Part shown: piece by piece, positions 26,107-49,725 of the stretch | Numbering within the stretch: position 1 is the stretch's first letter | Layout: every line of letters begins with the position of its first letter | Source of the DNA: Crocinitomicaceae bacterium | GTDB taxonomy: Bacteria > Bacteroidota > Bacteroidia > Flavobacteriales_D > Crocinitomicaceae | DNA length: 59,235 nt | Direction of reading: 5' to 3' | NCBI GenBank assembly: GCA_044341975.1 | Contig: JBIIQP010000001.1 | Span: 1 to 59,235, forward strand | Notes under the pieces: model-generated | The model's input: the letters and a program-made list of their open reading frames with translations, nothing else | Told to the model about the DNA's origin: nothing | The model's database searches: none | Position numbers and translations under genes: made by a program

Positions 26107-26202
26107 GTGAAAATAGAAAAAGCTTGATGCGAAGGTACTTTTGATATACCACCCTGTTGTTAACTAGATGTTGCCGGTATGTTAAATTAGGGGCGCAAAA
26201 AT

Positions 26203-27038: not shown

Positions 27039-30000
27039 TTATTTACCAACTACAACTCTTTCAGTTTTGCTGAATTGACCGTTAGAGATTTGAACGAAGT
27101 AAACTCCGTTAGAAAACTCATTCATGTCGATTGTAGTTTTTTCATTTGCATTCACATCAAATTGTGTCAATACTTGTTGACCAGTGATGTTCATGATTTG
27201 AACAGTTGAATTTTGACTTGCAACGATGTTCAACAATCCTTTTGTTGGGTTAGGATAGATTGAAGCAAAGTTTGAAGTCTCTTCATTGATAGTAAGTGCA
27301 GATTTACTGAATTCAACAGTAACTGGTTTACCATTCAACAATCCAAGTGTATTAATGAAATCATCCGCATTGATTTTACCTGCAACATTGTTGAAAGTAA
27401 CTTTCGCAATAGTGTTGTTTGCAACGAAGTTATCCATGTCGATTGCTGTATAACGTAACGTTCTATCACTTTCATTGAAGAATGCAAATCCGTCTACGTC
27501 TGCATTTACTGCATCAAGTGTAGAATAAGTCATTTTATCTTCGTTGTATTGGAAAGCGATATCCAATGCGTTAACTGGCTCGTTAGAAACGATTGACACA
27601 GGAACCTCAACTGTAGATCCATTCACAACCGCGTTGTCAAGATCAAGGATTACCTTAGATGTAGCGCTTTTCAACACTCCGTCAGCTGTATAAGCAGCAT
27701 AGTTTCCATCAACATCACCCAACATGATACCTTTATAAGTAATAGTATCAGATACTGGACAGTTTGCATATCCTGTTACTCTTGCAGGAAGTACGAAAGG
27801 AACAACCGGCACTTTGTGTTTTGAATAACCAACTAAATCATTTGCAGGGAACGTAGTTGAAATTTGGTAAGCTGGCGTTTGAAGTCTTACAGTATCAATA
27901 AAAACCCAGTCCTTTGAAGGCTGACCGTTAGAAACACCAGCAGCAGAATAGTTCCATGCTTGTTGGTACTCACCAATGTTCAATGTTGCTCTTTGCTTCA
28001 TTTGTGAGATATCCCCAGCAGAAACAACACCATCAAGGTTAACATCCAATGCAAGAATCTGATAGATTGATGGTTCAAAAGTTGCATCGTTCAAAAGAAG
28101 TGTTTTACCTTTTACAGCATCCGCAGCGTTGATGATCAACTGAACTGTTGCTGTGTTACTTACATTTCTTTCGAAATTCAAACCAAGACCATTTGTTAAA
28201 ACATGTGTGAAGCTTCCGTTGACATCTGGAGAAACAAATGTACTGTTGTTAACAACATTTGTTACAGTATCTGCTCCACGCACTTTAGAAATAAGAAACG
28301 CGTTAGGAAGAGCTGCGTTGTATTTGATTGGGCTGTTGTCCAACCAGAACTTCATTAAACCAGCGTAGTTCTCATCTCTGTATGTAATTGCTTTACCTGT
28401 AGAAGATGTCTTCGCAGCAACTCCAATGATATAACTTTCTTGAAGGAAAGATGTTGTAAACAACGATGTGTCAGTTGATGCAAAACTTCCTGTTTTATTA
28501 AACTCTACGCAGAAAATTTTACCTGTACCAAAGAACTCAGCAGTTGAAGGAGCAGATCCTTTGAAATATACAGAAATAGTCATTTTACCATTTACAGCAT
28601 CGATAGCGTGTGATTCTTCAATGTACGCAGTATTGATCAAATCTCCGTAAAGTGTGATGTTGCCTGTAGGTGTAACCTTAGCAGCGTTGTAATTCAACAC
28701 AACATCGTAACCTTTTACGTTGTCAACTGGAGCTGTTACAGCAACTGAAAGAGGAATGCAGAAAGTTGATTCATCACATGGTTGAGAAACGATTCCGATT
28801 TCATAAGGAAGTGCGTTTGGATCAGCGATGTTCAACACAACTGCAGATGAAGTTGTAATTGCACCTTTGTTGTCCGTTGATTTAACTGTCAAACTTGCTG
28901 TTCCTGGAACAGAAGTCCAAGTGTAAGAATATGGTGATGATGCATCAACACCAACAGAAGCACCATTTACAAAGAATTCAACTTGCGTAACTGTACCATC
29001 AGCATCAGATGCTGTAGCATTGATTGTTACTGCTGCTGGAGCAATGTATGTTGCAGAAGCCAATGGAGAAGTAATTGCAGCACTTGGAGGAGTGTTCACT
29101 GCCACTGCGATGTTTGCCACTGAAGAAGTAGCTACCAAACCTAAGTCATCAGTTGCTCTTGCTTTGATTGTATGGCTTCCTGCTGTAGCAGTCCAGCTGT
29201 ATGCATAAGGAGAAGAAGCATCCGTTGAAACGACAACGTCATCGATCAAGAACTCAACTTGTGTTACTGAACCATCAGCATCAGAAGCCGTTGCTGTAAT
29301 ATTTACAACATCTTGTTCGATTGCAGTAGTTGGAGCAGAAACAGCCACCACTGGAGCTTGGTTAGGAGCTACTGTAAAGTTGATTGTAGAAGTTTGAGTT
29401 GTAGCACAGTCACCATCTGTTGCGATAGCATAAAGCGTGTGCGAACCATTTGCAGCAGTGTAAGCAGCAGAATAAGGAGATGTTGCATCAGTTGCGAACA
29501 AAGCACCGTCTAAATAGAACTTAACATCTGTTACAGAAACGTTATCTGAAGCAGTTGCAGTAAAGTTAGTAGCCGTATTCGTGATAATTGCAGCACCATT
29601 TGAAGGGCTAGTCAATGAAATAGTCGGCGGCGTGTTTGCCGTTAATGTTAATGATGGGTGAGTTAAACCACCACTTGGAGGATTATTAGCCCAATAGTTT
29701 TCAACAGCATTCGTTAAAACATTTTGAATTTGTATGTTTAATTCAAAACTCAAGTTTCCATCTGTTGTAAACTGCCCAACCAACACCCTGTTTGTAGAGG
29801 TTAAACCTACGACTCCACCTAGTGCAGCAATTGACCCACCGTTTATTAAAACTGAATTTCCTGGGGTTTGATCTAATGCATCCAATGATGACCCCAAACC
29901 AAGTGAGTTGGGAGCAACATAGTAGGGTGGCGTTGCTGCAGAAAAAGTCATCATACCGTCAGCAGCACCTGTACCATTAATTGGCGCACCAAAACATCCA

Positions 30001-30470
30001 CCTGGATTGTTTGCAAGAATGCTTTGAGCATTACCAACAGACCCGTCTGTGTCTTCGTTTTTAGGAACACCAACCTTCGCACCACCAACACCACCAGTAG
30101 TGAACCATGAATCGAGCATTACTGTGTTTTTTCTAGTGTTTGTTGCAGAAACTGTGTACGGGTTTACTGTAACCCCGAAATTACCTTCATTAAAAAAGTT
30201 GGTTGTTGTGTTAACCTTTAAAGGATTCGAAGCGTTTCCAACCAACAAATTGAATTTCCAACCAGCAGCCATGTCCACATAAACACGGTACGTTACTGAG
30301 TTAGTTGTAAGTGGTGCTGGAGCTCCCTCAGAAACTGAGTTAGCCACATCTGCAGCGTTTGCTTGGTAGTATTTCTCTACGTAAATTCCATCCAAACCTT
30401 GAGCGAACGAAAAGTTACCAATCATTGCCAATCCAAGACCAAGCAATAATTTTTTAGTGTTTGTTTTCAT
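27039..30470 (-). CDS. Modular T9SS type-A surface protein: paralogous N-terminal module, 3 Ig-like domains, cohesin-like, dockerin-like, second cohesin-like, then the sorting domain
   Basis: 1143 aa. The N-module (res ~25-275) contains 'GIYVEKYY...TYRVYVDM...DSWFTTGG...GVPKNEDTDGS...GQFTTDGNLSFELN'. Three ~85-aa Ig-like repeats follow ('...ATASD.DG.VT.VEF......D.SSPY.Y.W'). The CTD reads 'SIYPNPTKGLLNIV...NGVYFVQISN'. Confidence 0.85.
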   Translation of the reverse strand: MKTNTKKLLLGLGLAMIGNFSFAQGLDGIYVEKYYQANAADVANSVSEGAPAPLTTNSVTYRVYVDMAAGWKFNLLVGNASNPLKVNTTTNFFNEGNFGVTVNPYTVSATNTRKNTVMLDSWFTTGGVGGAKVGVPKNEDTDGSVGNAQSILANNPGGCFGAPINGTGAADGMMTFSAATPPYYVAPNSLGLGSSLDALDQTPGNSVLINGGSIAALGGVVGLTSTNRVLVGQFTTDGNLSFELNIQIQNVLTNAVENYWANNPPSGGLTHPSLTLTANTPPTISLTSPSNGAAIITNTATNFTATASDNVSVTDVKFYLDGALFATDATSPYSAAYTAANGSHTLYAIATDGDCATTQTSTINFTVAPNQAPVVAVSAPTTAIEQDVVNITATASDADGSVTQVEFLIDDVVVSTDASSPYAYSWTATAGSHTIKARATDDLGLVATSSVANIAVAVNTPPSAAITSPLASATYIAPAAVTINATASDADGTVTQVEFFVNGASVGVDASSPYSYTWTSVPGTASLTVKSTDNKGAITTSSAVVLNIADPNALPYEIGIVSQPCDESTFCIPLSVAVTAPVDNVKGYDVVLNYNAAKVTPTGNITLYGDLINTAYIEESHAIDAVNGKMTISVYFKGSAPSTAEFFGTGKIFCVEFNKTGSFASTDTSLFTTSFLQESYIIGVAAKTSSTGKAITYRDENYAGLMKFWLDNSPIKYNAALPNAFLISKVRGADTVTNVVNNSTFVSPDVNGSFTHVLTNGLGLNFERNVSNTATVQLIINAADAVKGKTLLLNDATFEPSIYQILALDVNLDGVVSAGDISQMKQRATLNIGEYQQAWNYSAAGVSNGQPSKDWVFIDTVRLQTPAYQISTTFPANDLVGYSKHKVPVVPFVLPARVTGYANCPVSDTITYKGIMLGDVDGNYAAYTADGVLKSATSKVILDLDNAVVNGSTVEVPVSIVSNEPVNALDIAFQYNEDKMTYSTLDAVNADVDGFAFFNESDRTLRYTAIDMDNFVANNTIAKVTFNNVAGKINADDFINTLGLLNGKPVTVEFSKSALTINEETSNFASIYPNPTKGLLNIVASQNSTVQIMNITGQQVLTQFDVNANEKTTIDMNEFSNGVYFVQISNGQFSKTERVVVGK
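27306..27659 (-). other. Cohesin-like module 2 (residues ~938-1055)
   Basis: 'KVILDLDNAVVNGSTVEVPVSIVSNEPVNALDIAFQYNEDKMTYSTLDAV...IAKVTFNNV' is the closest of the four modules to the classical cohesin pattern (G.tv.vPV.......v...dF...Yd...l). Confidence 0.55.
27981..28049 (-). other. Dockerin/EF-hand-like Ca-binding segment (residues ~808-830)
   Basis: 'LDVNLDGVVSAGDISQMKQRATL' matches the dockerin repeat D.N.DG.....D followed by a helix. A second short 'LGDVDGNY' lies at residues ~917-924. Confidence 0.45.
28371..28805 (-). other. Cohesin-like module 1 (residues ~556-700)
   Basis: 'FCIPLSVAVTAPVDNVKGYDVVLNYNAAKVTPTG...GKIFCVEFNKT' has the same strand pattern as the other cohesin-like modules. 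Confidence 0.45.
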
Positions 30471-30654: not shown

Positions 30655-32865
30655 CTAATCACAAGACAATCCGAAAGCAGGAGCAAAGATTGTAAAATCG
30701 TTTACATCTGTATCTCCATCCTTATCCAAGTCTGTAGGACACGCTTTTACACCTGAAGTAGAACCAATCACTTGAGAATAAGACCAGTCAGACAACCAGT
30801 TTTGACCTGGTGTTGAAGAGAATGCACCACGGTAAGGAGCAGGCTCAAAGAAACCATCAAGCGGAGGCTGAGGACAGCCCGTGATAGACAGTGCTGGATT
30901 TGGAGTTGCATCATTCTTCGTAACGATGGCATTTGTATTTCCATTGATTGCGAAGGCAAAAGTGAAACCTGGCAATGTGGAAACCACATCATTTTTGTCT
31001 GTTGTTGTAAATTGAGTAAACTCTAAACCGTTTGCAGGACCGGTTGGTGATTGCGTAGACGCTGTAAGGTTGGTTCCCAAGCTTGCGCCTGACGCATTAA
31101 CAGTTAATGGGTTTGTTACTCCCACAAACGTGTTACAAATTACCTTCAAACCTTGTGTTCCATTACCAGAAGTCGCTGAACCCGTTGTTCCCGTAGCATA
31201 CCAGTTGTTCCAAGCTTCACCGACTGGATAAGCACGATTAGAACCAAGTGACTTTTGTAAGTTCAAACCATTACGGAAATTAGAGAATACGGAGTTGTAA
31301 ATTTCACCTTCGGTTAAGTCTTTAGCGTTAATTGCTGCTAAAGCAGAATTGTCACCTCCAACTGTTCCAGTTGTTTTAGAGTTCCCAATGAATGTAGAGT
31401 TATAAATGATTGGATGCGTTCGAGGTAAATTATTTGATCTATTGTCATCTGAATCTGCCTCAATTCCATTGTCATTGTCCGCGCTCACGTTTCCAATACC
31501 TGCTTGATCAGCTTTCATTCCAAAAACAAACTGTGCCTTACCTGTCCAGCCAAGATCGTAATCGAACATGTCGTCGTTACCAAATAGTGTCGTACAATAT
31601 TTTAGATTCACTGTTCCACCGAAAATTTCGATGTTGTCATCCGCACAAGAAACGATCTCAATATGTTCAATTTTAGTACCACGACCAACCGAAGCAAGTG
31701 TAAGACCATTGATCTCAGAACCTACTAAAAGGTTCGCTCCTGAGTGACGGATAGACACATAGGTCATTACACCTGAATTGTCATTGTCATCGAAAGAACC
31801 TGTACTTGTATAGTATGCACCAACATAACTTGCTACGGTTCCACTAGTTCCAGAAGTTGGAGCAGCTCCAGAAGCAGGTGCGACATACGTCATAGAACTA
31901 AAATAACCCGTTGCACCTGGACTTGGATAATCTCCTCCAAAAGTGATTGCGTCACCTGCTGTAACAGCAGCAGTAAGGTTAGCTGAAAGGGTAAGAGTTG
32001 TCGTATAAGGACCAGAACCTGTTTGGGCAATACTTAAAATTGTCGAGCCTGCCGCAACACCTGTTCCAGACACCGTTTGACCCTGAACGACGTAAGCAAG
32101 TGGTGAGGCCGAGCTAGAAAGTGTTAATTTATTCTGTCCGGAAGCATTTGAGCCAGATGCCGCTGCACCCGCTGTCAAACCAAAAGTGTACGAACCTGAA
32201 GGCGAAGTTGAAAGCACCGTACCAACTGGTATGCTCGTAGCCACACCAAACTGGTCTTGAGGATAAGAAGAAGCAAAACCTTCAATTACACCCAAACCAT
32301 CTGCCACAGCCAACTTACCAGCTTGACCAGGCACAAATGGGCCGTTTGCCACGAGAGTTAAATTATTAGTAGCTTTACCTAACAAAAGCACACCGCCCCA
32401 CATACCTTTGTTTGTAACCCCATAGGTTCCACTAAGGTCATCTGCTTGAGCTGTAAAAACGATCGGACAAGACTCAGTTCCCGGAGCCATGATCTTACCA
32501 CCTCTTTCGATGATGAGTGCAGTCGCTGCTGCTAATGATGGTGCAACCGTTCCTTTAATTACAGTTCCCGGTTGAATCGTTAGTGTTGCACCAGATGCTA
32601 CATAAATTTTCTGATCTAATGTCCAAATCTTGTCACATGTTAACGTCAAATTTCCAGTAATTTCACCTCCATAAGCAGACGTTGCAAGGTTAGTCCACAC
32701 ACCATTCGCCTGCGCCAAACTTTGAATCGTTTGCGTAGCTCGTGATGTTGTAGAAGGACAGCCACAAGCTGCACCCAGATTTTGTTGCGCAACAGTTGCG
32801 CTTGTACCTAACACTGTCATTGAAGCCAATGTAAGGAGACTTTTAATTGTCTTTTTTGTTTTCAT
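30655..32865 (-). CDS. Secreted parallel beta-helix-like protein with a C-terminal dockerin-like segment and no T9SS sorting domain
   Basis: 736 aa with a signal peptide (..TSATVAQQ). Beta-helix-type repeats include 'ASGATLTIQPGTVIKG' and 'GTKIEHIEIV...DDNIEIFGGTVNLKYC'. A long Ser/Gly/Thr/Ala-rich insert is present, and the protein ends 'CPTDLDKDGDTDVNDFTIFAPAFGLSCD'. Confidence 0.6.
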   Translation of the reverse strand: MKTKKTIKSLLTLASMTVLGTSATVAQQNLGAACGCPSTTSRATQTIQSLAQANGVWTNLATSAYGGEITGNLTLTCDKIWTLDQKIYVASGATLTIQPGTVIKGTVAPSLAAATALIIERGGKIMAPGTESCPIVFTAQADDLSGTYGVTNKGMWGGVLLLGKATNNLTLVANGPFVPGQAGKLAVADGLGVIEGFASSYPQDQFGVATSIPVGTVLSTSPSGSYTFGLTAGAAASGSNASGQNKLTLSSSASPLAYVVQGQTVSGTGVAAGSTILSIAQTGSGPYTTTLTLSANLTAAVTAGDAITFGGDYPSPGATGYFSSMTYVAPASGAAPTSGTSGTVASYVGAYYTSTGSFDDNDNSGVMTYVSIRHSGANLLVGSEINGLTLASVGRGTKIEHIEIVSCADDNIEIFGGTVNLKYCTTLFGNDDMFDYDLGWTGKAQFVFGMKADQAGIGNVSADNDNGIEADSDDNRSNNLPRTHPIIYNSTFIGNSKTTGTVGGDNSALAAINAKDLTEGEIYNSVFSNFRNGLNLQKSLGSNRAYPVGEAWNNWYATGTTGSATSGNGTQGLKVICNTFVGVTNPLTVNASGASLGTNLTASTQSPTGPANGLEFTQFTTTDKNDVVSTLPGFTFAFAINGNTNAIVTKNDATPNPALSITGCPQPPLDGFFEPAPYRGAFSSTPGQNWLSDWSYSQVIGSTSGVKACPTDLDKDGDTDVNDFTIFAPAFGLSCD
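30658..30747 (-). other. C-terminal dockerin/EF-hand-like segment bracketed by cysteines
   Basis: 'DLDKDGDTDVNDFTIFAPAF' is a D.D.DG.....D Ca-loop followed by a short hydrophobic helix. Confidence 0.45.
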
Positions 32866-32896: not shown

Positions 32897-32904
32897 CAAA
32901 GTTA
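32897..32904 (-). promoter_or_regulatory. Candidate -7 promoter box (TAACTTTG on the minus strand)
   Basis: Plus-strand CAAAGTTA is minus-strand TAACTTTG and matches TAnnTTTG. It lies 32 nt upstream of the ATG at 32865. Confidence 0.35.
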
Positions 32905-33035
32905 CGGGGGTAGTTTGCACAATGTATTACGCTTATTTTATCTATCTGATAAACTTTTACTAAGCCAGGGTATTGCTTTTTTTAAGGGAAAATTAAGTTG
33001 TTAAGCCAATGTGAACAACTTCTGGCTAGATTCTC

Positions 33036-33701
33036 TTACAAGTCTCTGGCAATGGCCAATTGAATGCCCGCACTGAACAACCTGCATGCCAAATCACCTT
33101 TTGAAACACTTGTAACCTGCTGCATAGCAAACAGCTGTGCTCTAAGCTTCCAAACCGGATCAAGTTTTACCAACACCCCTGCAGCCAATTGAGCATGCAA
33201 GGTAATAGAACTGGAAGAAGGGTATATTGACATCTTTTGTCGTTCATACGCATTCACCTCTTGATAAACGGCAGTGCTTTTTAAAAGTGTACCTGGAATG
33301 AATGATGGTTGAATGCAGAATTGAAAGCTCTCATTCGTGCGAAAATAAAAATTGGCTCCTACAGGAAACTGAAGGAAATGATAGTTTAAAGCATAGGATA
33401 TAAACCCATTAATAGCCTGTTCGTTGTAACTATAACCTTGCTTGTTATAGGCGATTCCCATGAAAAAAGATCTTTGTTCACTTACACCAAACTCATGGTT
33501 TATTTGGATGCCAAATCCAGCACTTCCTTTTTGCAAACTATCTTGTTCGTTTTTCAACCAATTCAACTCCTCGTTATTTGTTGAAAAAAAGCGGTAGTTA
33601 AAGGCTGGATTGACTGCTATTTCAAAACGTTGCAAGGTGTCCTGTGCAAAAAGTTGCGATCCAGTGATTGCTATAAAAAGTAGAATTAGAATTTTTTTCA
33701 T
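33036..33701 (-). CDS. Small outer-membrane beta-barrel (porin-family/OMP_b-brl-like) protein
   Basis: The ORF track starts at 33719. The ATG at 33701 (MKKILILLFIAITGSQLFAQ) gives a clean signal peptide. Alternating beta-strand pattern, ~220 aa, last gene of the operon. Confidence 0.6.
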   Translation of the reverse strand: MKKILILLFIAITGSQLFAQDTLQRFEIAVNPAFNYRFFSTNNEELNWLKNEQDSLQKGSAGFGIQINHEFGVSEQRSFFMGIAYNKQGYSYNEQAINGFISYALNYHFLQFPVGANFYFRTNESFQFCIQPSFIPGTLLKSTAVYQEVNAYERQKMSIYPSSSSITLHAQLAAGVLVKLDPVWKLRAQLFAMQQVTSVSKGDLACRLFSAGIQLAIARDL

Positions 33702-33705
33702 CTGG

Positions 33706-34419
33706 TTAGTCTTTAACACATCGAATGCTCATGCCATATTGGGCATGGGTATGCTGTCTGAAAATAGTTTTTTTCTTAGAATCAATATAACGGTAATACC
33801 CTTCTTCGCCATTGAGTGTTGATGTCCAGAAGAAAGCTGTGGTGGCATTGATGGAAGAGGTGCCATTGAATACTCTGCATCCTGCTGGTAAAATTCTCAT
33901 TTTGTATTTATCATTTCCAAAAGGCACACTGTTTGTTGGCCATCCTTCCGAATACAATGGCATGAGCAATTCTGCTTCGTTGGTTCCTCGCCATGCCAGT
34001 TTCTCTGTTTCCCCCTTGGCCATGCCAATTGCAAGTTCTAAGGCTTTCCAATCTTCATCCGTTGCCACGTGCCATCCTTCAGGTGCTAGTTGTTTCACGC
34101 TTTGCACTGCTGCCTGATTATATAGACATCCATAAATGGAGTCATTCAGGAAAGTATAACTTGGTAGGGATGCGTTTGCCCAAATCGTATCATTTGCAAA
34201 AATTGGAACGTAATTCAATTCACTTCCATCTGCTAGCCGCTTTGTCTTGAGGTTTTCCGTCATCCACCATTTACCCCCTATTTTTACGGTATTATAGGTA
34301 TTCCCATCTACATCTGTTACAGTTGAAGTTTCTAAAGGCTGTTCCTGTTCCTCTTTTCCGCATGAAGCAATTGAAAAAATAAGGAGCGCCGAAATAGTGA
34401 TAAAACGTAAAGCTTTCAT
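33706..34419 (-). CDS. FISUMP-domain (Fibrobacter succinogenes major paralogous domain) lipoprotein
   Basis: Lipobox 'FSIASC'. The motifs 'VTDVDGNTYNTVKIGGKWWMTENLK', 'APEGWHVATDEDWKALE', 'FFWTST' and the C-terminal 'GMSIRCVKD' are diagnostic of the TIGR02145-type domain. An alternative upstream start lies at 34437. Confidence 0.8.
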   Translation of the reverse strand: MKALRFITISALLIFSIASCGKEEQEQPLETSTVTDVDGNTYNTVKIGGKWWMTENLKTKRLADGSELNYVPIFANDTIWANASLPSYTFLNDSIYGCLYNQAAVQSVKQLAPEGWHVATDEDWKALELAIGMAKGETEKLAWRGTNEAELLMPLYSEGWPTNSVPFGNDKYKMRILPAGCRVFNGTSSINATTAFFWTSTLNGEEGYYRYIDSKKKTIFRQHTHAQYGMSIRCVKD

Positions 34420-34420
34420 A

Positions 34421-35764
34421 TTAATTCGATTTAACAAGGATCATTGTTTCTACTTTCCCCCCAACAGTAACAATCAGGTGATACAAGCCATTTTGTTGGT
34501 TGGAAAATTCCAACACCTCATCAATAACTTTTTCAGTTGCCGATAGATCTTTGCTTATAATCTTCACGCCATATGTGTTTACTATCTCATAATGAATTGG
34601 CTCGTCTGACATTCCAGAAAAAATGTTCAAAGTAAAATCATCATTGGATGGATTCGGAAAAACCTCAAGTTCAAACGACTCTCCCAGAAGAGACGGACAA
34701 ACTTGAGCAATATCTCTTCCGTTGCACAAGCCCGGATAGCAGCACAATCCTTGGACATTGAAATTCGACTGTGGATCAAAGTTACACGCCATAGAATCCA
34801 TGCAACCGTATATTATTGGGGTTATACATGATCCAGCCTCCAAACAACCAACAGTAGGATCGAATTCCAAATAAAGTGGGTCATTACAACCACATTCTAG
34901 TGGATAGATCAAAAAGGGATTATAGGTCTCTCCTGCTAACAAAACACTATCAGAACCAACATAAGTGAATGTCTGTAATTCACCGTTAACCTCTCCTTCT
35001 ATTTCCAGATTTAGATTAAACGACAGCTCTCCTGCGGTTGTTAATTGAGCGATTAATACATGATTACTATCTACAAGCACTCCAACCGTTCCGGTATTTC
35101 TCAATTCAAACTGACGACTATTGAATTCCGTGCCCGAATTGAGGGAACCAAAAATAGTGGTGTCAGCCCCAGTAACAAAATCAGTAACACCAACAGAAAA
35201 CCAAGTAGTTGGAGTATTAACAAGCGTATCCATTCCATCCGCAAGTGTCAATGGGCTGCCACATGAAGGATCTGCATTGGTCAATAGACCTCCTGAAATC
35301 ATTGCGCTTCCTCCGTCATTATTTTCCCCTCCGATAAAAGATCCATCGGTATCATATTCTTTCGGAATTCCAAAAAACGTTTTCCCCCCCTGTGTCTTTG
35401 TCGTCTGCCCAATCGTGAGCCAAGAATCGAGTGCAACGATATTCTCAGAATAACGAGCCTTTACAAAATCCTTCGCGAAGGTTTGTCCATCGGTTGTATG
35501 GTTGTAAAATGTTTCTGTGCTCCGAACAATAAATGGATGATTATCATCACCATATAACTTTTTCAGGCGAAAACCTGGTGCCATATCGACATAAATCCTA
35601 TAAGTGGTAGTGCCAGCAGGCAACGTTCCACCTGTTGTGTCTGTGGCATCATTTGCATCGCTGAGATAATACTTTTCTATGAACACGCGCTCTAATTGCG
35701 CAGATGCCGCTACTCCCGTCAAAACAAAAATTGATGTTAGTATGAAAGCTGTGAAATTCTTCAT
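34421..35764 (-). CDS. T9SS type-A cargo with the paralogous N-terminal module, a Cys-rich linker and a sorting domain
   Basis: 447 aa. The N-module contains 'VFIEKYYLSDA...TTYRIYVDMAPGF...DSWLTIG...GIPKEYDTDGS...AQLTTAGELSFNLN'. The Cys-rich segment is 'CGCNDP...GCMDSMACNFDPQSN...CCYPGLC'. The CTD reads 'LEVFPNPSNDDFTLNI...GLYHLIVTV'. Confidence 0.75.
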   Translation of the reverse strand: MKNFTAFILTSIFVLTGVAASAQLERVFIEKYYLSDANDATDTTGGTLPAGTTTYRIYVDMAPGFRLKKLYGDDNHPFIVRSTETFYNHTTDGQTFAKDFVKARYSENIVALDSWLTIGQTTKTQGGKTFFGIPKEYDTDGSFIGGENNDGGSAMISGGLLTNADPSCGSPLTLADGMDTLVNTPTTWFSVGVTDFVTGADTTIFGSLNSGTEFNSRQFELRNTGTVGVLVDSNHVLIAQLTTAGELSFNLNLEIEGEVNGELQTFTYVGSDSVLLAGETYNPFLIYPLECGCNDPLYLEFDPTVGCLEAGSCITPIIYGCMDSMACNFDPQSNFNVQGLCCYPGLCNGRDIAQVCPSLLGESFELEVFPNPSNDDFTLNIFSGMSDEPIHYEIVNTYGVKIISKDLSATEKVIDEVLEFSNQQNGLYHLIVTVGGKVETMILVKSN

Positions 35765-35768
35765 TTAT

Positions 35769-38700
35769 CTAAAGTTTATAGGCAACCCCCAGTGTGAATA
35801 CTGTCCCGTATCTGAACCGGTCAAAATCCGCATACCCATCGTTAAGTTTGTATTGTCTCAAAACTGGGGCATTGAGTATATCTCGAACTGTAAGACTGGA
35901 GGAGAAATGTTTCCCAAGTGTTTTAGTTACTTTAAAATCTAGGGAGTGCCTTGGCATTTCATAGATGTCCGGGCGACCTTTCAATATCCCTGTGATCACT
36001 AGTCTTGGCCCTTGCACATTGTAACTCACGGTTGCTGTCAAGCCCAAAGAATCAGACTTGTAAGACAACATGCCATTTATAATATAAGGCGCCTGACCAA
36101 ACATCGTTCTTTGTACAGTATCAATTGGTATATATTCAATTTGATTTCCTGGCAGGATAATGAAGTCTTTTCGTACGTATTGAGAATACGATTTTACAAT
36201 CGTGACGTTCGATCTAAATTCCAGGAATTTTCCAATCTGCTTTTTACCTTCCAATTCGACTCCAGCCACATAGGAGTTTTCATTGTTATCCCACGTAATA
36301 CCTGAACTACCAAAGCCCATTTCAATGTGATTCTTAAAGTCTTTGTAGAACAAGCTAAAAGAAATATTATCGTTGCTACGGAAAAAAGACTCTATACGGA
36401 AATCAAAGTTGTTAACCTCTGTCACTTTTAGATTTGGGTTTCCATAGATCAATGTGCGGAATTCATTGTCATAGACAGCAGAGGCGTTCATTTCACGTAT
36501 GTTAGGACGCGCAACAGTCTGGCTGAAATTGAACCTCAAATTCGTAGTAACCTTCTCTTCATTCCCCAACTTCAGAATCACACTTCCTGAAGGCAAAAGA
36601 TCTATTTGATCAATGATGCCTGGATTAATCAGAGGATACCCCGGGATACTTACCCTTCTTCCATCATTGATACCGTATCCCAAAAGGTCGTAAATGTAGA
36701 TATCAGACAATAAACCTGCCTTTTCAACACGAAGCCCTCCATTTATTCTAAGTCTTTTGAAGAACTCGTAATCAATTAAACCGAATCCTGACAAAATACT
36801 GCTATTACCAATCGTTCTGTTCCAGTCCCAGATCTGATCTTTATAGTAATAGCATATTTGTCCGTTAGACATAATGAATTTATCTGAGCCCAAAAAAGCT
36901 GAAATATCATCGTTTTGCAAACCTTGAAAGATAGCATTACCCTGAGCAAGAAAATATTCGTCTTGTTTCGTGGTTCTAGACATGGTTTGAAAAGCGGAAC
37001 CGAATTTGAGTTTTCTAACCAGCTTCTTCTCCGGCTTGATCAAGGGAACCTCAACAGACAAGCGGGTATCCAATAAATTTTCAGTCAAGTATCTGTAATA
37101 GCGCCGTATGCCATCTCCTGCATTTGGAGAAAAAATGTAACTGAGAATTGAATCACCCTCTCTAACGGCATCATACTGGGTTAATTTAAAATCAGGAGCA
37201 ACACTGCTTCCACGGGTATAAGAAGCATTTGCATCGATCTTGATCTTGCTTTTTGGCAAGAGGTGCTGTGATGCCAGCTGATAAATGAGTTGCTTGCGTT
37301 GTTCATAAAAGATATTTTTACGCACAATATATTCCTGCATATATTGTTTATCCCATTGTGAAGAGAAATTAGCCACATCATTGGTTCCAATGTAATTTGG
37401 CATAAACAACAAAGACACTTTATTGTAATCGTTGATCTTGTAAGCCAGATTCGCAAGCATGCTCCAAGAATTGGTTTCTCGGCTGATACGTGCATCGTCA
37501 ATAAATTCAATCGGATAGTTCAACTCTTCTGCTCCTATGCGCTGAGAAACACCATTATCATCGTAACGAATGGAATTGCCATAACGCACACCAAAAATAT
37601 ATCCCAGCGGTTTTCCAAAAAGTTTTACCTGGTCACCAATACTGAAGTTCTGCGTAAAATTCAATGGGGCCTTACGATACCTCACATTCCAATTGTTGGC
37701 AAATCCATTCTCGTAATTAGTTCCTTCGGGATTAATTCGTGCATATGCTTTAGGTGCATAATTCGCATTGTAATTGTTCAAGGCTGTTTGATATGCCACC
37801 GGATCGTTCATTTGGGTTGGATTTAATAAACCAAGTTCCACAAGACCTAAGCGCATGTATGTTTCCTCTTCTGGACTTCCATCAGCCCAACCTGTAACAC
37901 CAATTCCATTGAAATAACTCCCCAACCCAAGCGCCACCATTTCCTGGTAATTCGTTGGTTGGAGTATAGGAGCAGAGATCACTGCCTGGGAATCATCCCT
38001 TGAACGCAACCCGCCATCAAAACCAAGCCAATCGGTAGAGCTTCGTTCAGAAGTAATAAAATCTTTGAATGTACTTTGGGCATTGTATCCGAATTGAGAC
38101 TCTACATTCACCATTAATTTATCTGGATAGTCTTTCGTCTCAACAGAAAGATAAGCACCCGTCCAATCACCTGGTAAATCAGGACTTGCTGTTTTTGTAA
38201 TTACGATATTGTCTACTAAACTTGTTGGAAAAATGTCCAACTTAATATTGTTCGTAAGCGGATCCAATGTCGGAATGCGTGATCCATTCAATGTTGTTTT
38301 TACATATCTATCTCCGATACCTCGAACAGTAATCAACCCTCCACTCGTTGAAACCCCTGAAACCCTTGCTACTGCCGCAGTCACGTTGGCATCCCCTGTT
38401 TTTTTCATTGTTTCAGAGGAAATGTAATCGATTGTAGTTGCAGAGTTGATTTTCAATTTCTCCATGTAATAATCATTGGCCCTTACTTGTTTTACAACAA
38501 CTCTGACCTCTTTGATTTCCCTTACTTTATAGGCCGCCATCGAGAAATCTTTGACCACTACTTCGCCATTCAACAATTGGATGTTTTCGTAAATGGTATC
38601 CATCCCAACATATGCTACCATCAAGACTTTTTTATCGCCTGTCTTGATATTGAGGTTGTAATTTCCGTCAAGGTCACTTTTCGTGCCGGTTGTAGGATCA

Positions 38701-38828
38701 TCTTTTAGAGAAAGTCGGGCACCGATCACAGATTCCCCATTTTCATCTGTCACCTTTCCCCTCAAGACACCTTGAGACAAAACCGATAAGGAAATAAACA
38801 ACCCTATTACAATGAGTAGAATACGCAT
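35769..38828 (-). CDS. TonB-dependent outer-membrane receptor with an N-terminal carboxypeptidase-regulatory-like domain (no adjacent SusD)
   Basis: 1019 aa. The CarbopepD_reg-like segment is 'GVLRGKVTDENGESVIGARLSL...TKSDLDGNYNL'. The plug segment is 'ITVRGIGDRYVKTTLNGSRIPTLDP'. A long beta-barrel ends 'GTVFTLGVAYKL'. Confidence 0.9.
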   Translation of the reverse strand: MRILLIVIGLFISLSVLSQGVLRGKVTDENGESVIGARLSLKDDPTTGTKSDLDGNYNLNIKTGDKKVLMVAYVGMDTIYENIQLLNGEVVVKDFSMAAYKVREIKEVRVVVKQVRANDYYMEKLKINSATTIDYISSETMKKTGDANVTAAVARVSGVSTSGGLITVRGIGDRYVKTTLNGSRIPTLDPLTNNIKLDIFPTSLVDNIVITKTASPDLPGDWTGAYLSVETKDYPDKLMVNVESQFGYNAQSTFKDFITSERSSTDWLGFDGGLRSRDDSQAVISAPILQPTNYQEMVALGLGSYFNGIGVTGWADGSPEEETYMRLGLVELGLLNPTQMNDPVAYQTALNNYNANYAPKAYARINPEGTNYENGFANNWNVRYRKAPLNFTQNFSIGDQVKLFGKPLGYIFGVRYGNSIRYDDNGVSQRIGAEELNYPIEFIDDARISRETNSWSMLANLAYKINDYNKVSLLFMPNYIGTNDVANFSSQWDKQYMQEYIVRKNIFYEQRKQLIYQLASQHLLPKSKIKIDANASYTRGSSVAPDFKLTQYDAVREGDSILSYIFSPNAGDGIRRYYRYLTENLLDTRLSVEVPLIKPEKKLVRKLKFGSAFQTMSRTTKQDEYFLAQGNAIFQGLQNDDISAFLGSDKFIMSNGQICYYYKDQIWDWNRTIGNSSILSGFGLIDYEFFKRLRINGGLRVEKAGLLSDIYIYDLLGYGINDGRRVSIPGYPLINPGIIDQIDLLPSGSVILKLGNEEKVTTNLRFNFSQTVARPNIREMNASAVYDNEFRTLIYGNPNLKVTEVNNFDFRIESFFRSNDNISFSLFYKDFKNHIEMGFGSSGITWDNNENSYVAGVELEGKKQIGKFLEFRSNVTIVKSYSQYVRKDFIILPGNQIEYIPIDTVQRTMFGQAPYIINGMLSYKSDSLGLTATVSYNVQGPRLVITGILKGRPDIYEMPRHSLDFKVTKTLGKHFSSSLTVRDILNAPVLRQYKLNDGYADFDRFRYGTVFTLGVAYKL

Positions 38829-38848
38829 ACCGAATGGTATTAAATAGG

Positions 38849-39952
38849 TTAGTTTTTAATTACCTGGCGAACAATCTGTCGATCACCAATTTTCAGCGTG
38901 ATGAAATAAACTCCCGATTGGTAAGCGGACATATCAAGCGTTTTCGAAAGTTTACCAACACAAACACCCAATTTGTTCTCTTCCAAAATTTGACCGCTTA
39001 AATTAGACACAGTGTATGTGTCTTCATTGTTTGCTGATTTGTAATTGTATATAGTTATGTTTAGTTTGTCATTTGTTGGGTTAGGGTACATCGCAACCTC
39101 TGCATTTTCTGGAAGAAACTCTTCAATTCCCGCAGTAGTGTCTGGTTCAACATACGAAGTGTAGATCAATGAGGAATCTTGAATTTCAGCTCCAACAGGA
39201 TTGCTTGCAACAAAGATCTGACTCTGTCCTGGGGTAGGTGTTCCTATTTGCAGGTTCCATTCAAAACTAAAAATACCATCTGTTGTAAACTGACCTAAAA
39301 GCACCATATTGCTCTCTGTTGCTCCTTGGGCACCGCCGAGCGCAGCAATTGATCCATTGTTCGTTTGAAAAGTATTTCCAGCCGTTTGATCAAAAATATC
39401 CAATTCCGTAGTTATTCCAAGGACGTTTGGAACAATTGGTGTTCCTGGTAACAGTCCATCTTGTGCGCCAACACCAGTGATTGGAATTCCTGCAGTTGCA
39501 TCCGCGTTTGCCAAAATTCCCTGAGTGTTTCCAATAGACCCATCGGTGTCTTCTGTTTTTGGCACGCCCAACAAACCGGAAGCAACCCCTCCAGCTGTAA
39601 AATACGAGTCAATTAACTGCGTGTACTTTTTAGTATTATTCTGGCTCGTACCATTATAATAAGCAACCCCATAATTAGGATCATTGTAAAATGCAGTTGT
39701 CGTGCTTACTTTAAATGGGTGATTTTGATTTCCCAAACTCATAATAAAACTATATCCGGGAAGGAGGTCTGCGTACACTCGATATGTAACAGATCCAACG
39801 TGAAGTGGATAAACCGCTCCGTTTGCATCTGCGTCAGCTGAATCAGCAGCATCAGAGACATAATATTTTTCCACCACAATACCTTCCAAACCATTTTGAG
39901 CCTGCGAATAAAGAGCGAAGAATAAACTTGCTAAAAGCGTAATTTTTTTCAT
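38849..39952 (-). CDS. T9SS type-A cargo consisting of the paralogous N-terminal module plus a sorting domain
   Basis: 367 aa containing 'GIVVEKYYVSDA...VTYRVYADLLPGY...DSYFTAGG...GVPKTEDTDGS...GQFTTDGIFSFEWN'. The CTD reads 'VAMYPNPTNDKLNITI...GVYFITLKI'. Confidence 0.75.
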   Translation of the reverse strand: MKKITLLASLFFALYSQAQNGLEGIVVEKYYVSDAADSADADANGAVYPLHVGSVTYRVYADLLPGYSFIMSLGNQNHPFKVSTTTAFYNDPNYGVAYYNGTSQNNTKKYTQLIDSYFTAGGVASGLLGVPKTEDTDGSIGNTQGILANADATAGIPITGVGAQDGLLPGTPIVPNVLGITTELDIFDQTAGNTFQTNNGSIAALGGAQGATESNMVLLGQFTTDGIFSFEWNLQIGTPTPGQSQIFVASNPVGAEIQDSSLIYTSYVEPDTTAGIEEFLPENAEVAMYPNPTNDKLNITIYNYKSANNEDTYTVSNLSGQILEENKLGVCVGKLSKTLDMSAYQSGVYFITLKIGDRQIVRQVIKN

Positions 39953-39959
39953 ATCGATA

Positions 39960-40790
39960 CTATTTGTTTTTATTTTTTCTTTTTTTAGAACTTGTATATA
40001 TTAGACTTTCTAATAAAATCTCCTCCCCCTCTGGGTTCCGAGCAACAAAGCGCTGGGTCTTTCTGTCTGGACCAACTGTTAAGATGTTTAATTCAAATTC
40101 AAATAGCCCATCCGTTGTGACCTGAGCAATTAACACTCTATTAGTTGAAAGCGAATCTGGTCCAACAGCGCCCAAGCCCATGCAAGCCCACGCGCCATTT
40201 TTGGTGTAAAATAAGTTGCCATCCGACTTTTGATTAAAAACTTGCACCGCTGTATCAATTCCGAAGAAGGTGTGATTCGGCATATATTCACTGGCCTTGA
40301 GACCATCTTTTACTGTCAATGGCTCACCCGCTTTTTTATTCGCATTTATTAAAAACTGATTTGGTCGAGGTGTATTTTCTAATGTGTCGTCATCGCTCTT
40401 TAAAATCCCCAAGGAACCTTCTGATGCGGTTCCAACTGACAACCACGAATCGAGCATCAAGGTATTTTTAGAAAGTTTTCTTTTAATAACTGCACTAGCA
40501 ACTGTAGAACCATTCTCTATGTGATTGTAGAAATATGTGTTCGTTTTAAAAAACAACGGGTGCGTTGAGCTACCGTAGGCCATACTAAAACGGTGTCCGG
40601 GAAGGAGGTCTACAAAAACGCGATAAGTAACGGACCCTGGCGCAAGCTTTCCTGTTAAATTCGGCGCTTCGCTGTCTTTTTCGGAGCTGACATAATATTT
40701 CTCAACAATAATGCCCTCCAGCCCATTTGATTGAGCCATTGAAAACAAACTAATCCCACCAAACACAATTGCCGCTAACAACCCTTTCAT
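39960..40790 (-). CDS. Sorting-domain-less paralogue of the same N-terminal module, ending in a polybasic tail
   Basis: 276 aa with a signal peptide. It contains 'GIIVEKYYVSSE...VTYRVFVDLLPGH...DSWLSVG...AQVTTDGLFEFELN' and terminates 'LIYTSSKKRKNKNK' at the point where the paralogues continue into linker and CTD. Confidence 0.7.
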   Translation of the reverse strand: MKGLLAAIVFGGISLFSMAQSNGLEGIIVEKYYVSSEKDSEAPNLTGKLAPGSVTYRVFVDLLPGHRFSMAYGSSTHPLFFKTNTYFYNHIENGSTVASAVIKRKLSKNTLMLDSWLSVGTASEGSLGILKSDDDTLENTPRPNQFLINANKKAGEPLTVKDGLKASEYMPNHTFFGIDTAVQVFNQKSDGNLFYTKNGAWACMGLGAVGPDSLSTNRVLIAQVTTDGLFEFELNILTVGPDRKTQRFVARNPEGEEILLESLIYTSSKKRKNKNK

Positions 40791-41039
40791 ACTTATTCAC
40801 TTTGTGCCTTCAAAAAAGACAATACATTTCAAAGCGCAAGATTATTGAAATCCTTTAAGCAATAAATTAAGCCTGTGTTATAGTTAGATTAAAATTCTAG
40901 CGCTTTAGCCATTAACAGACCCTGATTTTTATTCGAAGCTTCCATAAATTTTCCGCTGTAGTGTATTTGAATCGTCAAAAAACAAACTATACATAGACAT
41001 AAAATGCTATCATTAAATAGATTAAGTGGTAAATCCGCG

Positions 41040-41070
41040 CTCTTAACAGAGCATTAAAAATCTCTTAACA
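41040..41070 (+). promoter_or_regulatory. Two CTCTTAACA direct repeats, 22 bp apart, upstream of the choice-of-anchor-I gene
   Basis: Exact 9-mers at 41040-41048 and 41062-41070, 55 nt upstream of the ATG at 41125. They share the TTAACA core with the array at 48749-48990. Confidence 0.4.
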
Positions 41071-41124
41071 ATTGCTAAACCTTGGGTTCAAATGGTTTGG
41101 CGACATTCGTCAAAAATTTAAAAA

Positions 41125-44100
41125 ATGAAGAAAAGTTTATTTTTAATACCATTTTTAGCAGTGGGATTTCTATCCCATGCTCAATCTACAATTGCCTATT
41201 GGGATTTTAATTCTACAAGCAATGATGCCACCACCTCAACAGGCGAATTAACTCCGGCAATTGGATCTGGAATATTCTCGCCCATAGGTGGAATTAATCA
41301 AACGTATGCAACGGGCTATTTGGCAGACCCCAACACGACTGACAACTCCGGATGTCAAACAAATGGTTATCCTTCCACTGGCACAAACGCTCAAACGGCT
41401 GGTATAGAATTGGGTATCTCCACTGTTGGTTATTCGAAAGTGGCAATTGATTTTTGGCAACGCCTAAGCAATACAGCTGCCAATACGTGGGTGCTGCAAT
41501 ATACTTTAGACAACACGGGAGCATCTACTGGAGGAACCGTTTTGTGGACAAATGCAACAACTTATTCTTTTACTCCCGCAGCGACTGGAACAGGTGACAC
41601 TTGGTATTTCCGAACTTATGATTTTGCAACTGTAACTGGGCTTGGCAATAACGCAACAGCAGGATTTAGAATAGTATCTGATTTTGACCCAATAGCGGGA
41701 AATTATGTAGCTGCGACATTTGGCGCTTCGTACAGCACAGCTGGAACTTCGAGGTTTGATTTGGTTCGACTACGCGAATCGTATGGCAGTGCATCAATAA
41801 TTGCAGCCAACAATTACCAAGCTATATCCGAAAATGCCGGGACAATAAACGTTCCTGTTACTTATGCAAACGCAAACAATGCGCCTGCAAAATTGGTTGT
41901 TTCAGTTTCATCTTATTCTTCTGCTACCAGCGGAAGCGACTTCAACTGGACAAATGATACATTAACAATTCCTGCTTTGACTAATGGAATTACAAATTTT
42001 CCGATAAACATTATTGACGACACTGAGCAGGAACGAACTGAAACGCTCATTGTAAAAATAGGCGCAGCAGTCAACACTAATGTTTCAGCAACTGATTATT
42101 ACCAGCTGATATACATTAAAGACAACGATTATTATGCTCCAATTGCAACAAACGAAGCGAAGTTGAGCTTATTAACGAGCTTTTCAAACGGCGCATCAGG
42201 AACCAATTCTGCAGAAATTGTTGCACACGACCCAACGACCCAACGGTTATACATCGCAAATAGCATTGGTGCAAAATTAGATATTGTTGATTTTTCAAAC
42301 CCCAACGCACCAGTTTTGTTAAATAGCATTTCTGTAACACCCTATGGTAATATCAATTCTGTGACAGTACACGACGGTTTAATTGCTCTTGCTATTGAAA
42401 GTGTGCCCGCCCAAGCAAACGGTTCTGTTGTCTTTTTAGACGGAAACGGAAACTTTCTGAACCAAGTAACAGTTGGTGCAATGCCAGACATGATTACGTT
42501 CAACAAAGATTACACGAAAGTATTAACTGCAAATGAAGGAGAGCCCTCTGCTGCATATTCTACATTAGCTAGTAATAACATCGACCCATTGATTGACCCG
42601 CTTGGATCAGTTTCAATAATTGACTTGAGCGCTGGTGTTCCTGCTCTCACAAACAGTAATGTCACAACGCTTGATTTTACGGCATACAATGGTCAAGAAA
42701 CATCTTTAAAAAATCAAGGGATTCGAATTTTCTCTTCGGCAGCATCTGTCGCTCAAGATATGGAACCAGAATACATCACTATTTCTGAAGATAACTCAAA
42801 AGCTTACGTTTCTATTCAAGAAAACAACGCATTATTGGTAATTGACTTAGCAACACAATCCATTGATACACTTTATCCGCTTGGTTATGCTGACTATTCA
42901 AACAATAATGGAATGGACGCATCTGACCAAACAACAGGTCAAATTCTAATTTCTTCCGTTCCTGCGAAAGGCGCATACATGCCAGATGCTATCGCCTCTT
43001 CTTCCATCAATGGAACGAATTATGTGTTCTCTGCAAATGAAGGCGATTCTCGAGAGTTTGGAGCTGTTATCGATGCAGCACGCATCAACTCATTAACACT
43101 TGATGCAACTCAATTTCCAAATCAGGAAATCATCAAAAACAACAAGTATCTTGGGCGATTAAGTGCACTTAAGTACTCTGGTGACACAGACAATGACGGT
43201 GACCTTGATGAATTACACACAATGGGAGGACGATCTTTCTCTGTGTGGAATGCAGAAACAGGTGAGTTGGTATATGACTCAAAAGACCTTATCGAACGCA
43301 TTATTTCACAAAACCCTTCTTTTGCTGCAATTTTCAACGCTAGCAATTCAACAGGTACACCCGCTTTAAAAAACAGAAGTGACGATAAAGGTCCAGAACC
43401 TGAAGGAGTTGCAACAGCATTTTTTAATAATACAAACTATTTATTCGTTTCTCTTGAGCGAATTGGTGGATCGATGATCTTTAATGTGAACGACCCTGCA
43501 AATCCGATCTATGTTGGCTACTCAAATAATCGCTCAACAACATCATCTGGTCCTGATCTTGGTGCAGAAGGTATTATTTTCATTTCAGAAGAGAATTCTC
43601 CAAACGGAGAAGCAATGTTAATTCTTGCTAACGAGGTGAGCAGCACTCTTTCCATTTTCCAATTCAATACTTGTTCTGAGTTAGCAAAAACAGAAATCAG
43701 TGCAATAGACAGTGTTTTGTGTGAAGGAGAAAATACGACCATCAGCTTTGAAGGAACCTCTGGAAGCTCTTGGCAATGGTTATTAAACGGCGCGCCTATT
43801 TCTGGTGAAACAACGAATACTTTCAACGCATCCAATGCAGGTTTATATGCGATTTATGTTCAAAGTGACGTATATGCTTGCCGCGACACATCATCAACGC
43901 TTGAACTTACAGTAAACTCCCTTCCAACTGTCATTGCAAACGCAACAGACAACTCACTATGTGAAGGCGAAGAGTTAACACTCTCTGCAACTGGAGCAAC
44001 TACTTATTCATGGGGTTCTGGCGTCGTAAGCAATACCGCCTTCATTCCTGAATCTTCTGCATTATACACTGTAATAGGAACAGATCTTAATGGATGCTCG

Positions 44101-48721: not shown

Positions 48722-48748
48722 ACTCATTAACTTTTTGTTCACATTGAG

Positions 48749-48990: not shown

Positions 48991-49025
48991 ATTATCACGA
49001 AAAAGTTGCTGATTAAAAAATCGGA

Positions 49026-49033
49026 TAACTTTG
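49026..49033 (+). promoter_or_regulatory. Candidate -7 promoter box (TAACTTTG) for the DUF47-PiT operon
   Basis: Matches TAnnTTTG 15 nt upstream of the ATG at 49048. A TTG lies at 49006-49008 at -33-like spacing. Confidence 0.45.
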
Positions 49034-49047
49034 CCAAAAAATCAATT

Positions 49048-49695: not shown

Positions 49696-49725
49696 GCCTA
49701 ACATTTACATAACTAATATAATAGT

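Follow-up and report, generated by a model that had tools for sequence, protein, structure and literature searches.

A conserved TonB-dependent receptor operon with type IX secretion cargo in freshwater Flavobacteriales and its possible link to phosphorus limitation

The SusC/SusD polysaccharide utilization loci (PULs) are built around a TonB transporter with a CarboxypepD_reg-like N-terminus and a Plug domain, which is operonic with surface-exposed accessory proteins. In BtuB–BtuG and HmuR–HmuY of Bacteroidota, the TonB-dependent barrel is paired with a dedicated surface lipoprotein other than SusD, from which it receives a scarce nutrient that the lipoprotein has captured. We describe here an operon of six genes (A to F) from a Crocinitomicaceae bacterium that invites comparison with both. 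It lies on the minus strand of a stretch of 59,235 nucleotides (GenBank assembly GCA_044341975.1, contig JBIIQP010000001.1, positions 1 to 59,235), and this whole stretch is called the window below. Like the PULs, the operon holds a transporter of this domain make-up (C), and its accessories include a lipoprotein (E) with a surface-export-like signal. Unlike the PULs, it has no SusC/RagA signature, no SusD in the window and no carbohydrate-active enzymes; its accessories are type IX secretion system (T9SS) cargo carrying an uncharacterised module, a FISUMP-domain lipoprotein and a small barrel. With BtuB–BtuG and HmuR–HmuY it would share the logic of capturing and passing on. It differs from them in the folds of the accessories and in having T9SS cargo, and not lipoproteins alone, as partners, and an Rfam scan of the entire window found no riboswitch or other Rfam element. 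The locus is a real and conserved one of which we found no earlier description, and the domain at its core belongs to no known family. By kind, we place it among the TonB-dependent loci for nutrient uptake that have accessory proteins at the surface.

The other system to be compared is the PUSIII/FI cluster of Flavobacterium johnsoniae (Fjoh_3853-3859), whose function is unknown and whose loci are among those most induced by depletion of phosphate (Pi) (Lidbury et al. 2021, PMC8115612). Pi depletion in this bacterium induces SusD-less TonB-dependent transporters (TBDTs) with Plug and CarbopepD_reg_2 as their sole Pfam content, two proteins with a T9SS C-terminal domain (CTD) and without Pfam domains, and the beta-helix-like exoprotein FI; PlcP, a PF04101 glycosyltransferase and a MauG-like protein are also induced, and PitA sits in a Pi-sensitive cluster (PMC8115612). 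The locus in the window has in common with PUSIII/FI the SusD-less TBDT with Plug and CarbopepD_reg_2, the two T9SS-CTD proteins and a beta-helix-like secreted protein. PUSIII/FI belongs to the Pho response, and Pho-box-like repeats precede the operon described here. The gene order is different, and PUSIII has FecR with an extracytoplasmic function sigma factor and an S41 peptidase, all of which are absent from the loci studied here. Fjoh_3854 is a 30-kDa lipoprotein, and FISUMP and barrel genes are not reported for that cluster. The proteins FI, FII and FIII of F. johnsoniae are reportedly related to ElpS of Caulobacter crescentus, a phosphate-starvation-induced surface or released protein that is linked to extracellular phosphatase activity (PMC2996285); as a difference from the present system, ElpS is a lipoprotein released in a manner dependent on the type II secretion system. 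Literature searches found no later work on the PUSIII/FI genes of F. johnsoniae. Searches on FISUMP and TonB, on T9SS and TonB in Crocinitomicaceae, and on the Pho regulon and T9SS found no description of the present operon.

The list of open reading frames (ORFs) has six in a row on the minus strand at 33036-40790, spaced 1–20 nt apart:

39960-40790, minus strand: gene A, 276 aa; signal peptide and N-module, without a T9SS CTD, with a polybasic tail (SSKKRKNKNK)
38849-39952, minus strand: gene B, 367 aa; N-module and type-A T9SS CTD
35769-38828, minus strand: gene C, 1019 aa; TonB-dependent receptor with CarboxypepD_reg-like N-terminus and Plug, not of the SusC/RagA type
34421-35764, minus strand: gene D, 447 aa; N-module, Cys-rich linker of about 75 aa and type-A T9SS CTD
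33706-34437, minus strand: gene E; FISUMP-domain lipoprotein, likely start ATG 34419
33036-33719, minus strand: gene F; small outer-membrane beta-barrel, likely start ATG 33701

The gaps measure 7 nt (A–B), 20 nt (B–C) and 4 nt (C–D). At the last two junctions the spacing depends on the choice of start codon: D and E are separated by 1 nt (ATG 34419) or overlap by 17 nt, and E and F are separated by 4 nt (ATG 33701) or overlap by 14 nt, the overlaps arising from longer TTG/GTG starts. Base composition is uniform over the whole operon region. Scans of the sequence for sigma-70 promoters, terminators and the plain TAnnTTTG motif gave background levels only. Judged by their spacing, the six genes are one tightly, translationally coupled unit.

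A pattern scan over one genome per GTDB species returned 504 stretches that encode a relative. We examined the best 80 loci, onto which the window proteins were mapped by tblastn (single loci are cited by L numbers below). All 80 are metagenome-assembled genomes (MAGs) from freshwater lakes, rivers and ponds, labelled mostly as Flavobacteriales, Flavobacteriia, Crocinitomicaceae, Cryomorphaceae or Bacteroidota; about a dozen bear species-level or out-of-phylum names that resemble binning placeholders. The order A-B-C-D-E was seen in 80/80 species loci wherever the contig was long enough, and F is usually present. Independent look-ups gave the same order, including one in a MAG labelled Sediminibacterium. 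Median gaps over the loci were 5 nt (A–B), 18 nt (B–C), 9 nt (C–D), −4 nt (D–E) and 2 nt (E–F). Some species have extra copies of the B type upstream, up to runs of three or four before the receptor (L054, L083). The arrangement far exceeds chance, since the same order and tight spacing recur in every locus whose contig allows it. A first-pass annotation, made from the window sequence alone, had listed these six ORFs with the same coordinates, gaps and alternative overlaps, had read them as one tightly coupled unit and a candidate for an undescribed system, and had proposed the synteny check. The ORF list reproduces its positions, Pfam and NCBIfam scans agree with its domain calls, the close spacing recurs across species, the check passes strongly, and no publication on the system came to light.

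Three of the six products are related to each other. A, B and D align across approximately 250 residues at 34–45% identity (A and B share 45% over the module), with 60-odd invariant positions, among which D, E, N, T and G are frequent, along with R, K and H. No Pfam or NCBIfam model matches A or the module parts of B and D, and a profile search of the PDB with a module protein matched the CTD only. B has 540 homologues at E ≤ 1e-3, each of them unnamed or named for the CTD alone. With clusters counted at 50% identity, a profile built from three module sequences matched 1176 of them at E ≤ 1e-3; at E ≤ 1e-30 the number was 527. The matches include tandem modules, two to four per protein, in lengths up to 2182 aa (for example P0121-P0135), and look-ups of clusters of relatives returned "hypothetical protein" from metagenomes only. 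In 44 long module proteins the recurrent partners are the CTD (38/44), immunoglobulin (Ig)-like repeats and calcium-binding repeats only, and no enzyme domain recurs among them.

The full-length B protein was modelled by AlphaFold2 with a predicted local distance difference test score (pLDDT) of 85. Its Foldseek search was swamped by the Ig-like CTD, and the module was therefore modelled again on its own (pLDDT 90.3, predicted TM-score 0.91). Foldseek with this model found nothing significant in the PDB (best E 0.26, TM ≤ 0.29) and no significant match in BFVD; we call the fold novel in the sense that it has no solved (PDB) or viral (BFVD) counterpart, and in no wider sense. The weak, non-significant matches were cohesin-like or lectin-like beta-sandwiches and, at an E value of about 1, the copper protein YcnI. 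The module is an uncharacterised beta-rich domain. The first-pass annotation had named a known enzyme as the module, and loss of synteny, as grounds against its reading. Neither applies: the order of the genes recurs, and the module lacks any Pfam or NCBIfam model and any PDB match in sequence or fold.

The three proteins differ in what accompanies the module. Orthologues of A measure 268–294 aa, carry Sec-type signals and lack both a Cys lipobox and a CTD. In most of them the C-terminus is a conserved K/R-rich tail such as SSKKRKNKNK (window 39960-39990) or KKNKSKKK, which could bind a membrane or a polyanion. The CTD of B scores 47.1 bits with PF18962 (cut-off 27) and 40.5 with TIGR04183 (cut-off 23); that of D scores 30.6 and 24.3 bits against the same cut-offs. 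Ten Cys columns of the D linker are kept across 59 orthologues. The type-A CTD marks B and D as T9SS cargo and as nothing further; such cargo may also be released. The covalent anchoring that the first-pass annotation had stated for B and D goes beyond this, and so does its suggestion that T9SS cargo delivers substrate to the receptor. T9SS-related genes elsewhere in the window are a PorP/SprF-family gene and genes for type-B CTD proteins.

The receptor C contains a clear Plug domain (PF07715, 40.2 bits with a cut-off of 23.9, E 5.5e-10, residues 128-216), preceded by a CarbopepD_reg_2/CarboxypepD_reg domain at the N-terminus (PF13715, 5.9e-10). Its best family is TIGR01782 (TonB-Xanth-Caul), at 152 bits and an E value of 2.2e-44, which is under the cut-off of 310. 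The alignment spans residues 623-1018, where the C-terminal barrel lies, together with some of the N-terminus, and the orthologue of C in L004 matches PF00593. C is thereby predicted to have the C-terminal 22-strand barrel of TonB-dependent receptors, and its scores place it as a relative of the TIGR01782 subfamily and not as a member. Receptors of that subfamily also work without SusD; examples are SuxA, MalA and NagA. C differs from them in its low score and in its Bacteroidota-type CarboxypepD_reg N-terminal domain, and to our knowledge the subfamily has no T9SS partners. The SusC/RagA signature (TIGR04056) is absent from C, for which NCBIfam gives only TIGR01782 and two weak unrelated models. 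In a sequence search of the PDB, the sole match to C was the N-terminal domain of a SusC homologue. No SusD Pfam family was found among the 32 ORFs in the window with 150 aa or more, or among the annotated genes around the fetched loci, so the absence of SusD that had been noted at first reading is confirmed.

The lipoprotein E belongs firmly to the FISUMP family (PF09603, Fib_succ_major, 131.8 bits versus a cut-off of 33.9, E 4.5e-38; TIGR02145, 93 versus 41.65). Its signal terminates in IASC, followed by GKEEQEQ. All 64 distinct N-termini of its orthologues have a Cys after the hydrophobic region, and in most of them the residues past this Cys are K/Q/N and then acidic (D/E). This region resembles the surface-export signal of Bacteroidota lipoproteins. 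The barrel F is the most divergent member of the operon, with 20–27% identity in most loci. It matches PF13568 (OMP_b-brl_2) at 28.7 bits, just over the cut-off of 27, and NF049866 under its cut-off. From these localisation signals we infer that B, D and E are probably extracellular and that A is probably periplasmic.

The FISUMP domain is C-type-lectin-like, and this raises the question of a glycan substrate. The operon could be a PUL-like system for glycans or other organic polymers, unrelated to phosphorus, in which the module and FISUMP proteins bind carbohydrate, the beta-helix protein encoded downstream (G) acts as a lyase or hydrolase, and the receptor imports oligomers. TIGR01782 being the best receptor family match would suit this, and so would the beta-helix Pfam family to which orthologues of G belong, the fusion of modules elsewhere to Ig/PKD, DUF4982, MAM and similar surface domains, and the cohesin-like or lectin-like character of the weak fold matches. 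Against it, the TIGR01782 score is half of the cut-off, the fold matches are all non-significant (best E = 0.26), and no glycoside hydrolase, lyase, esterase or SusD family was found by Pfam or NCBIfam in any cluster gene. It would also leave unexplained the direct repeats that the operon has in common with the promoters of phosphate-transport genes, which are described below. We regard it as unlikely.

That the genes form a TonB-dependent operon for capture and uptake at the outer membrane, with surface accessories, in freshwater Flavobacteriales is likely. The parts could be put to a use other than import: the barrels might serve the assembly, anchoring or export of T9SS surface proteins, or an adhesive or structural layer. 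No inner-membrane transporter lies in the operon, and 3/6 of the products are of one surface-protein family, as such a role would have it; moreover, Oar, a TBDT of the CarboxypepD_reg type, is reported to be needed for the secretion of PopC (PMC6434023). C, however, has a standard Plug and no match to an Oar-type family, T9SS cargo has its own export route, and promoter motifs held in common with transport genes suit nutrient uptake better. Such a role strikes us as improbable, and we retain uptake as the likely function.

The genes next to the operon complete the conserved block:

30655-32865, minus strand: gene G; 736-aa secreted protein of about 77 kDa, with orthologues annotated Beta_helix_4 (PF28492)
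27039-30470, minus strand: gene H; Ig-repeat protein (Big_7) with T9SS CTD, with which the block usually ends
41125-44814, plus strand: gene U; choice-of-anchor-I protein (MSP130-like propeller; PF22494, 6.8e-143) with Calx-beta and Ig repeats and a T9SS CTD

G is present in 53 loci and is followed by a CTD protein; the usual tail of the block is thus the beta-helix gene and then the Ig-repeat T9SS gene. A search with G gave more than 3635 relatives, all unnamed. Domain searches of H recognised Ig-like domains and nothing else, and PDB sequence searches with E, G and H gave accessory-domain matches or none. F and G are separated by 170 nt here (median across loci 171 nt), and this gap holds its own repeat and −7 box. 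U adjoins the operon in about 15 loci; it is divergent here and stands in tandem upstream of A in other species. The six genes of the first-pass annotation stand as a unit, and its boundary does not, since G, H and often U travel with the operon. A phosphatase function for the choice-of-anchor-I domain was considered for U and dropped: the literature gives the function of MSP130 as unknown, and a link to an "atypical alkaline phosphatase" was not used as evidence.

The upstream regions carry direct repeats of the hexamer TT[ATC]ACA with a period of 11 bp. The hexamer resembles the Bacillus PhoP consensus, TT(A/T/C)ACA. The relevant features in the window are as follows:

48727-48807 and 48879-48982: dense array of TTAACA-like hexamers at 11-bp spacing, between Porin_O_P and PhoU_div/PHO4
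47477-48691, minus strand: phosphate-selective porin gene (Porin_O_P)
48976-51168, plus strand: PhoU_div and PHO4/PiT gene pair
41043-41081, plus strand: TTAACA direct-repeat array (17/18) in the A/U intergenic region, 55–82 nt upstream of the start of U
40837-40892, minus strand: promoter region of A, with a degenerate 11-bp-period array (40854-40892) and a candidate Bacteroidota −7 box, TAATCTTG (40837-40844)
32999-33015 and 32897-32904: upstream region of G, with a perfect dimer, TTCACATTGGCTTAACA, and a −7 box, TAACTTTG, respectively

Dimers were called at ≥11/12 and triple arrays at ≥15/18. Expected counts of triple arrays were obtained from Markov shuffles, and the sets of orthologous upstream regions were non-redundant (59 for A and 42 for G). 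The 59-kb window has 8 triple arrays, compared with 0.23 in shuffles. All 8 are intergenic and confined to three regions: the porin/PiT region (5), the A/U region (2) and the region upstream of a PKD/CHU_C gene (1). The dimers number 13, of which 8 are intergenic, among them the perfect one 150 nt before G. The array between the porin and PhoU-PiT genes is probably the Pho box of this lineage. The motif is found again in L014, where PhoU/PHO4 and the porin flank it. Direct repeats with a period of 11 bp are the defining architecture of the Pho box (PMC9306846, PMC2275107).

The repeats recur upstream of orthologues of A and G. For A, a dimer is present in 17/59 regions (1.35 expected), about 95–115 nt before the ATG, and a proximal ATAA[CT]-N6-TTAAT element is present in 25/59 (0.94 expected). 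For G, the dimer is present in 10/42 regions (1.25 expected), approximately 148 nt before the start. We counted 24 triple arrays in 1.33 Mb of loci, of which 17 lie beside cluster genes; fewer than 17 are independent, because several loci are near-identical. The proximal element of A has the fuller form (TTC)ATAAC-N6-(GA)TTAAT(AT) and, in these 25 species, precedes the −7 box by about 20 nt (for example L015, ~9030-9050; window 40866-40881). Another regulator may bind there, or the element may be a degenerate second Pho box standing in for the −33 element. The one array upstream of the PKD/CHU_C gene (26158-26185, minus strand) is also strong; this gene, with PKD repeats and a type-B (CHU_C) T9SS signal, lies at 23077-26106 and is followed by the PorP/SprF-family gene (22068-23066). 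From the array upstream of it, this pair may be co-regulated with the operon.

A pair of genes for MbnP and MbnH (CCP_MauG) adjoins the choice-of-anchor-I gene in 11–13 loci. In L001 (2661-4438, minus strand), MbnP and the di-haem MauG/MbnH protein are encoded divergently from the choice-of-anchor-I gene, and the same is seen in 10–12 other loci. CTD proteins near these pairs carry "Cu-binding_MopE" Cys-rich repeats and a lamin-tail domain. Such neighbours, together with the EF-hand, TSP3 and dockerin calcium-binding repeats fused to modules elsewhere and the presence of YcnI among the weak fold matches, would be expected if the operon acquired a metal (copper, or calcium or iron), with the surface proteins catching the metal or a metallophore for the receptor. 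In contrast to the MbnT/MbnP/MbnH copper uptake system, the window and most loci lack MbnP and MbnH, and the loci that do have them carry them on the opposite strand. The MopE motif, PF11617, is generic and Cys-rich, and the YcnI match has an E value of about 1. The promoter motifs found are direct repeats, from scans that included no dedicated search for Fur or Zur boxes. Since a MauG-like gene is induced at low Pi in F. johnsoniae, an MbnP/MbnH neighbour fits a phosphorus role equally well, and we consider metal acquisition very unlikely.

The window and its close relatives have the PhoU_div-PHO4 pair no more than 8 kb from the operon, and so do three further lineages, L009, L014 and L085. 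The pair of L085 shares the strand of the operon and stands immediately upstream. The first-pass annotation had held that the substrate cannot be inferred. We revise this: the repeats common to phosphate-transport genes and the PhoU-PiT linkage point to phosphorus limitation. A link of the operon to phosphorus is moderately supported by these upstream sequences and neighbours. Our overall reading of the locus, based on its sequence, is that it may be an uptake operon that is induced by phosphate limitation and acquires a phosphorus-containing substrate; we put its probability at roughly 0.5.

Several points weigh against this reading. Among the approximately 40 loci with enough flank, no more than about 4 show the PhoU-PiT linkage. 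No phosphatase, nuclease or phosphate-binding domain is recognisable in A–F, and C is closest to TIGR01782, a subfamily best known for carbohydrate uptake. In the window, the repeats beside A are weak (9/12 and 13/18), and the strong array faces U. A literature search found no experimentally defined Pho box in Bacteroidota, and the repeats could belong to another regulator of the OmpR family. The sign of the regulation is itself inferred, since PhoB of other bacteria can act on PiT genes as a repressor and not as an inducer. The comparison with PUSIII/FI is one of Pfam content and protein sizes, and the sizes differ, FI having 45 kDa compared with 77 kDa for G.

If the operon acquires a phosphorus-containing substrate, the products could work together as follows. 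B and D would be exported by the T9SS, and E would be flipped to the cell surface. The three proteins would bind the substrate outside and present it to C, in the place of SusD. A, which has neither a CTD nor a lipobox, would stay in the periplasm and may receive the same ligand after transport, and F would be an outer-membrane accessory. G (beta-helix), H and U (choice-of-anchor-I propeller) would be co-regulated extracellular helpers that process or trap the substrate. Phosphate freed in the periplasm would then enter via carriers of the PiT type, which are encoded nearby in several species. A regulator of the OmpR/PhoB type, bound to the 11-bp-period TT[ATC]ACA repeats, would control the A operon, G, U, the phosphate porin and PhoU-PiT.

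A more far-reaching proposal is that the operon represents a new class of TonB uptake machine, in which one binding module works on both sides of the outer membrane. B, D and the FISUMP lipoprotein would capture a phosphorus-containing polymer or particle, and the Sec-only protein A, with its polybasic tail, would take over in the periplasm. The T9SS would then be an integral supplier of accessory subunits for a transporter, beyond its enzymes and adhesins. We hold this proposal to be doubtful at present, though of interest.

In most lakes production is limited by phosphorus, and Flavobacteriales of the Crocinitomicaceae/Cryomorphaceae type abound in such waters. If it is under Pho control, this eight-gene surface system, conserved in 80 species or more, would be a major means of capturing phosphorus, and one so far unstudied. 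Were our reading to hold, Bacteroidota would assemble TonB-dependent uptake complexes from T9SS cargo and not from SusD, and the large orphan domain family (the 1176 clusters above) would gain its first functional handle. It would also give a context for the equally unexplained low-phosphate FI clusters of plant-associated Flavobacterium.

Other genes of the window and of single loci are of possible relevance to phosphorus or to the cell surface. One further feature of the window is a gene pair:

20123-22071, plus strand: Metallophos_2 phosphoesterase (weakly LpxH-like), then a glycosyltransferase of the PF04101/MJ1255 type

The Pfam families of this pair are those of the low-Pi lipid-remodelling genes of F. 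johnsoniae. The pair resembles the PlcP-Agt pair of phosphorus-sparing lipid remodelling; the repeats upstream of it are weak (best dimer 10/12). In one species (L087, 6718-7596, minus strand), a gene of the Ppx/GppA exopolyphosphatase family lies two genes upstream of the operon. At 10611-14450 on the minus strand of the window, we noted genes for an outer-membrane channel of the FadL/TodX family, a GDSL lipase-like protein and a BD-FAE/alpha-beta hydrolase with a T9SS CTD; by its domain content, this set looks like a lipid or ester uptake unit. Two large surface proteins are encoded on the same strand. One (14583-19784) has 1733 aa, with GEVED, HYR, fn3 and purple-acid-phosphatase-N-like domains and a type-A CTD, and the other (2296-9951), of 2551 aa, combines SprB and PKD repeats with a type-B CTD.

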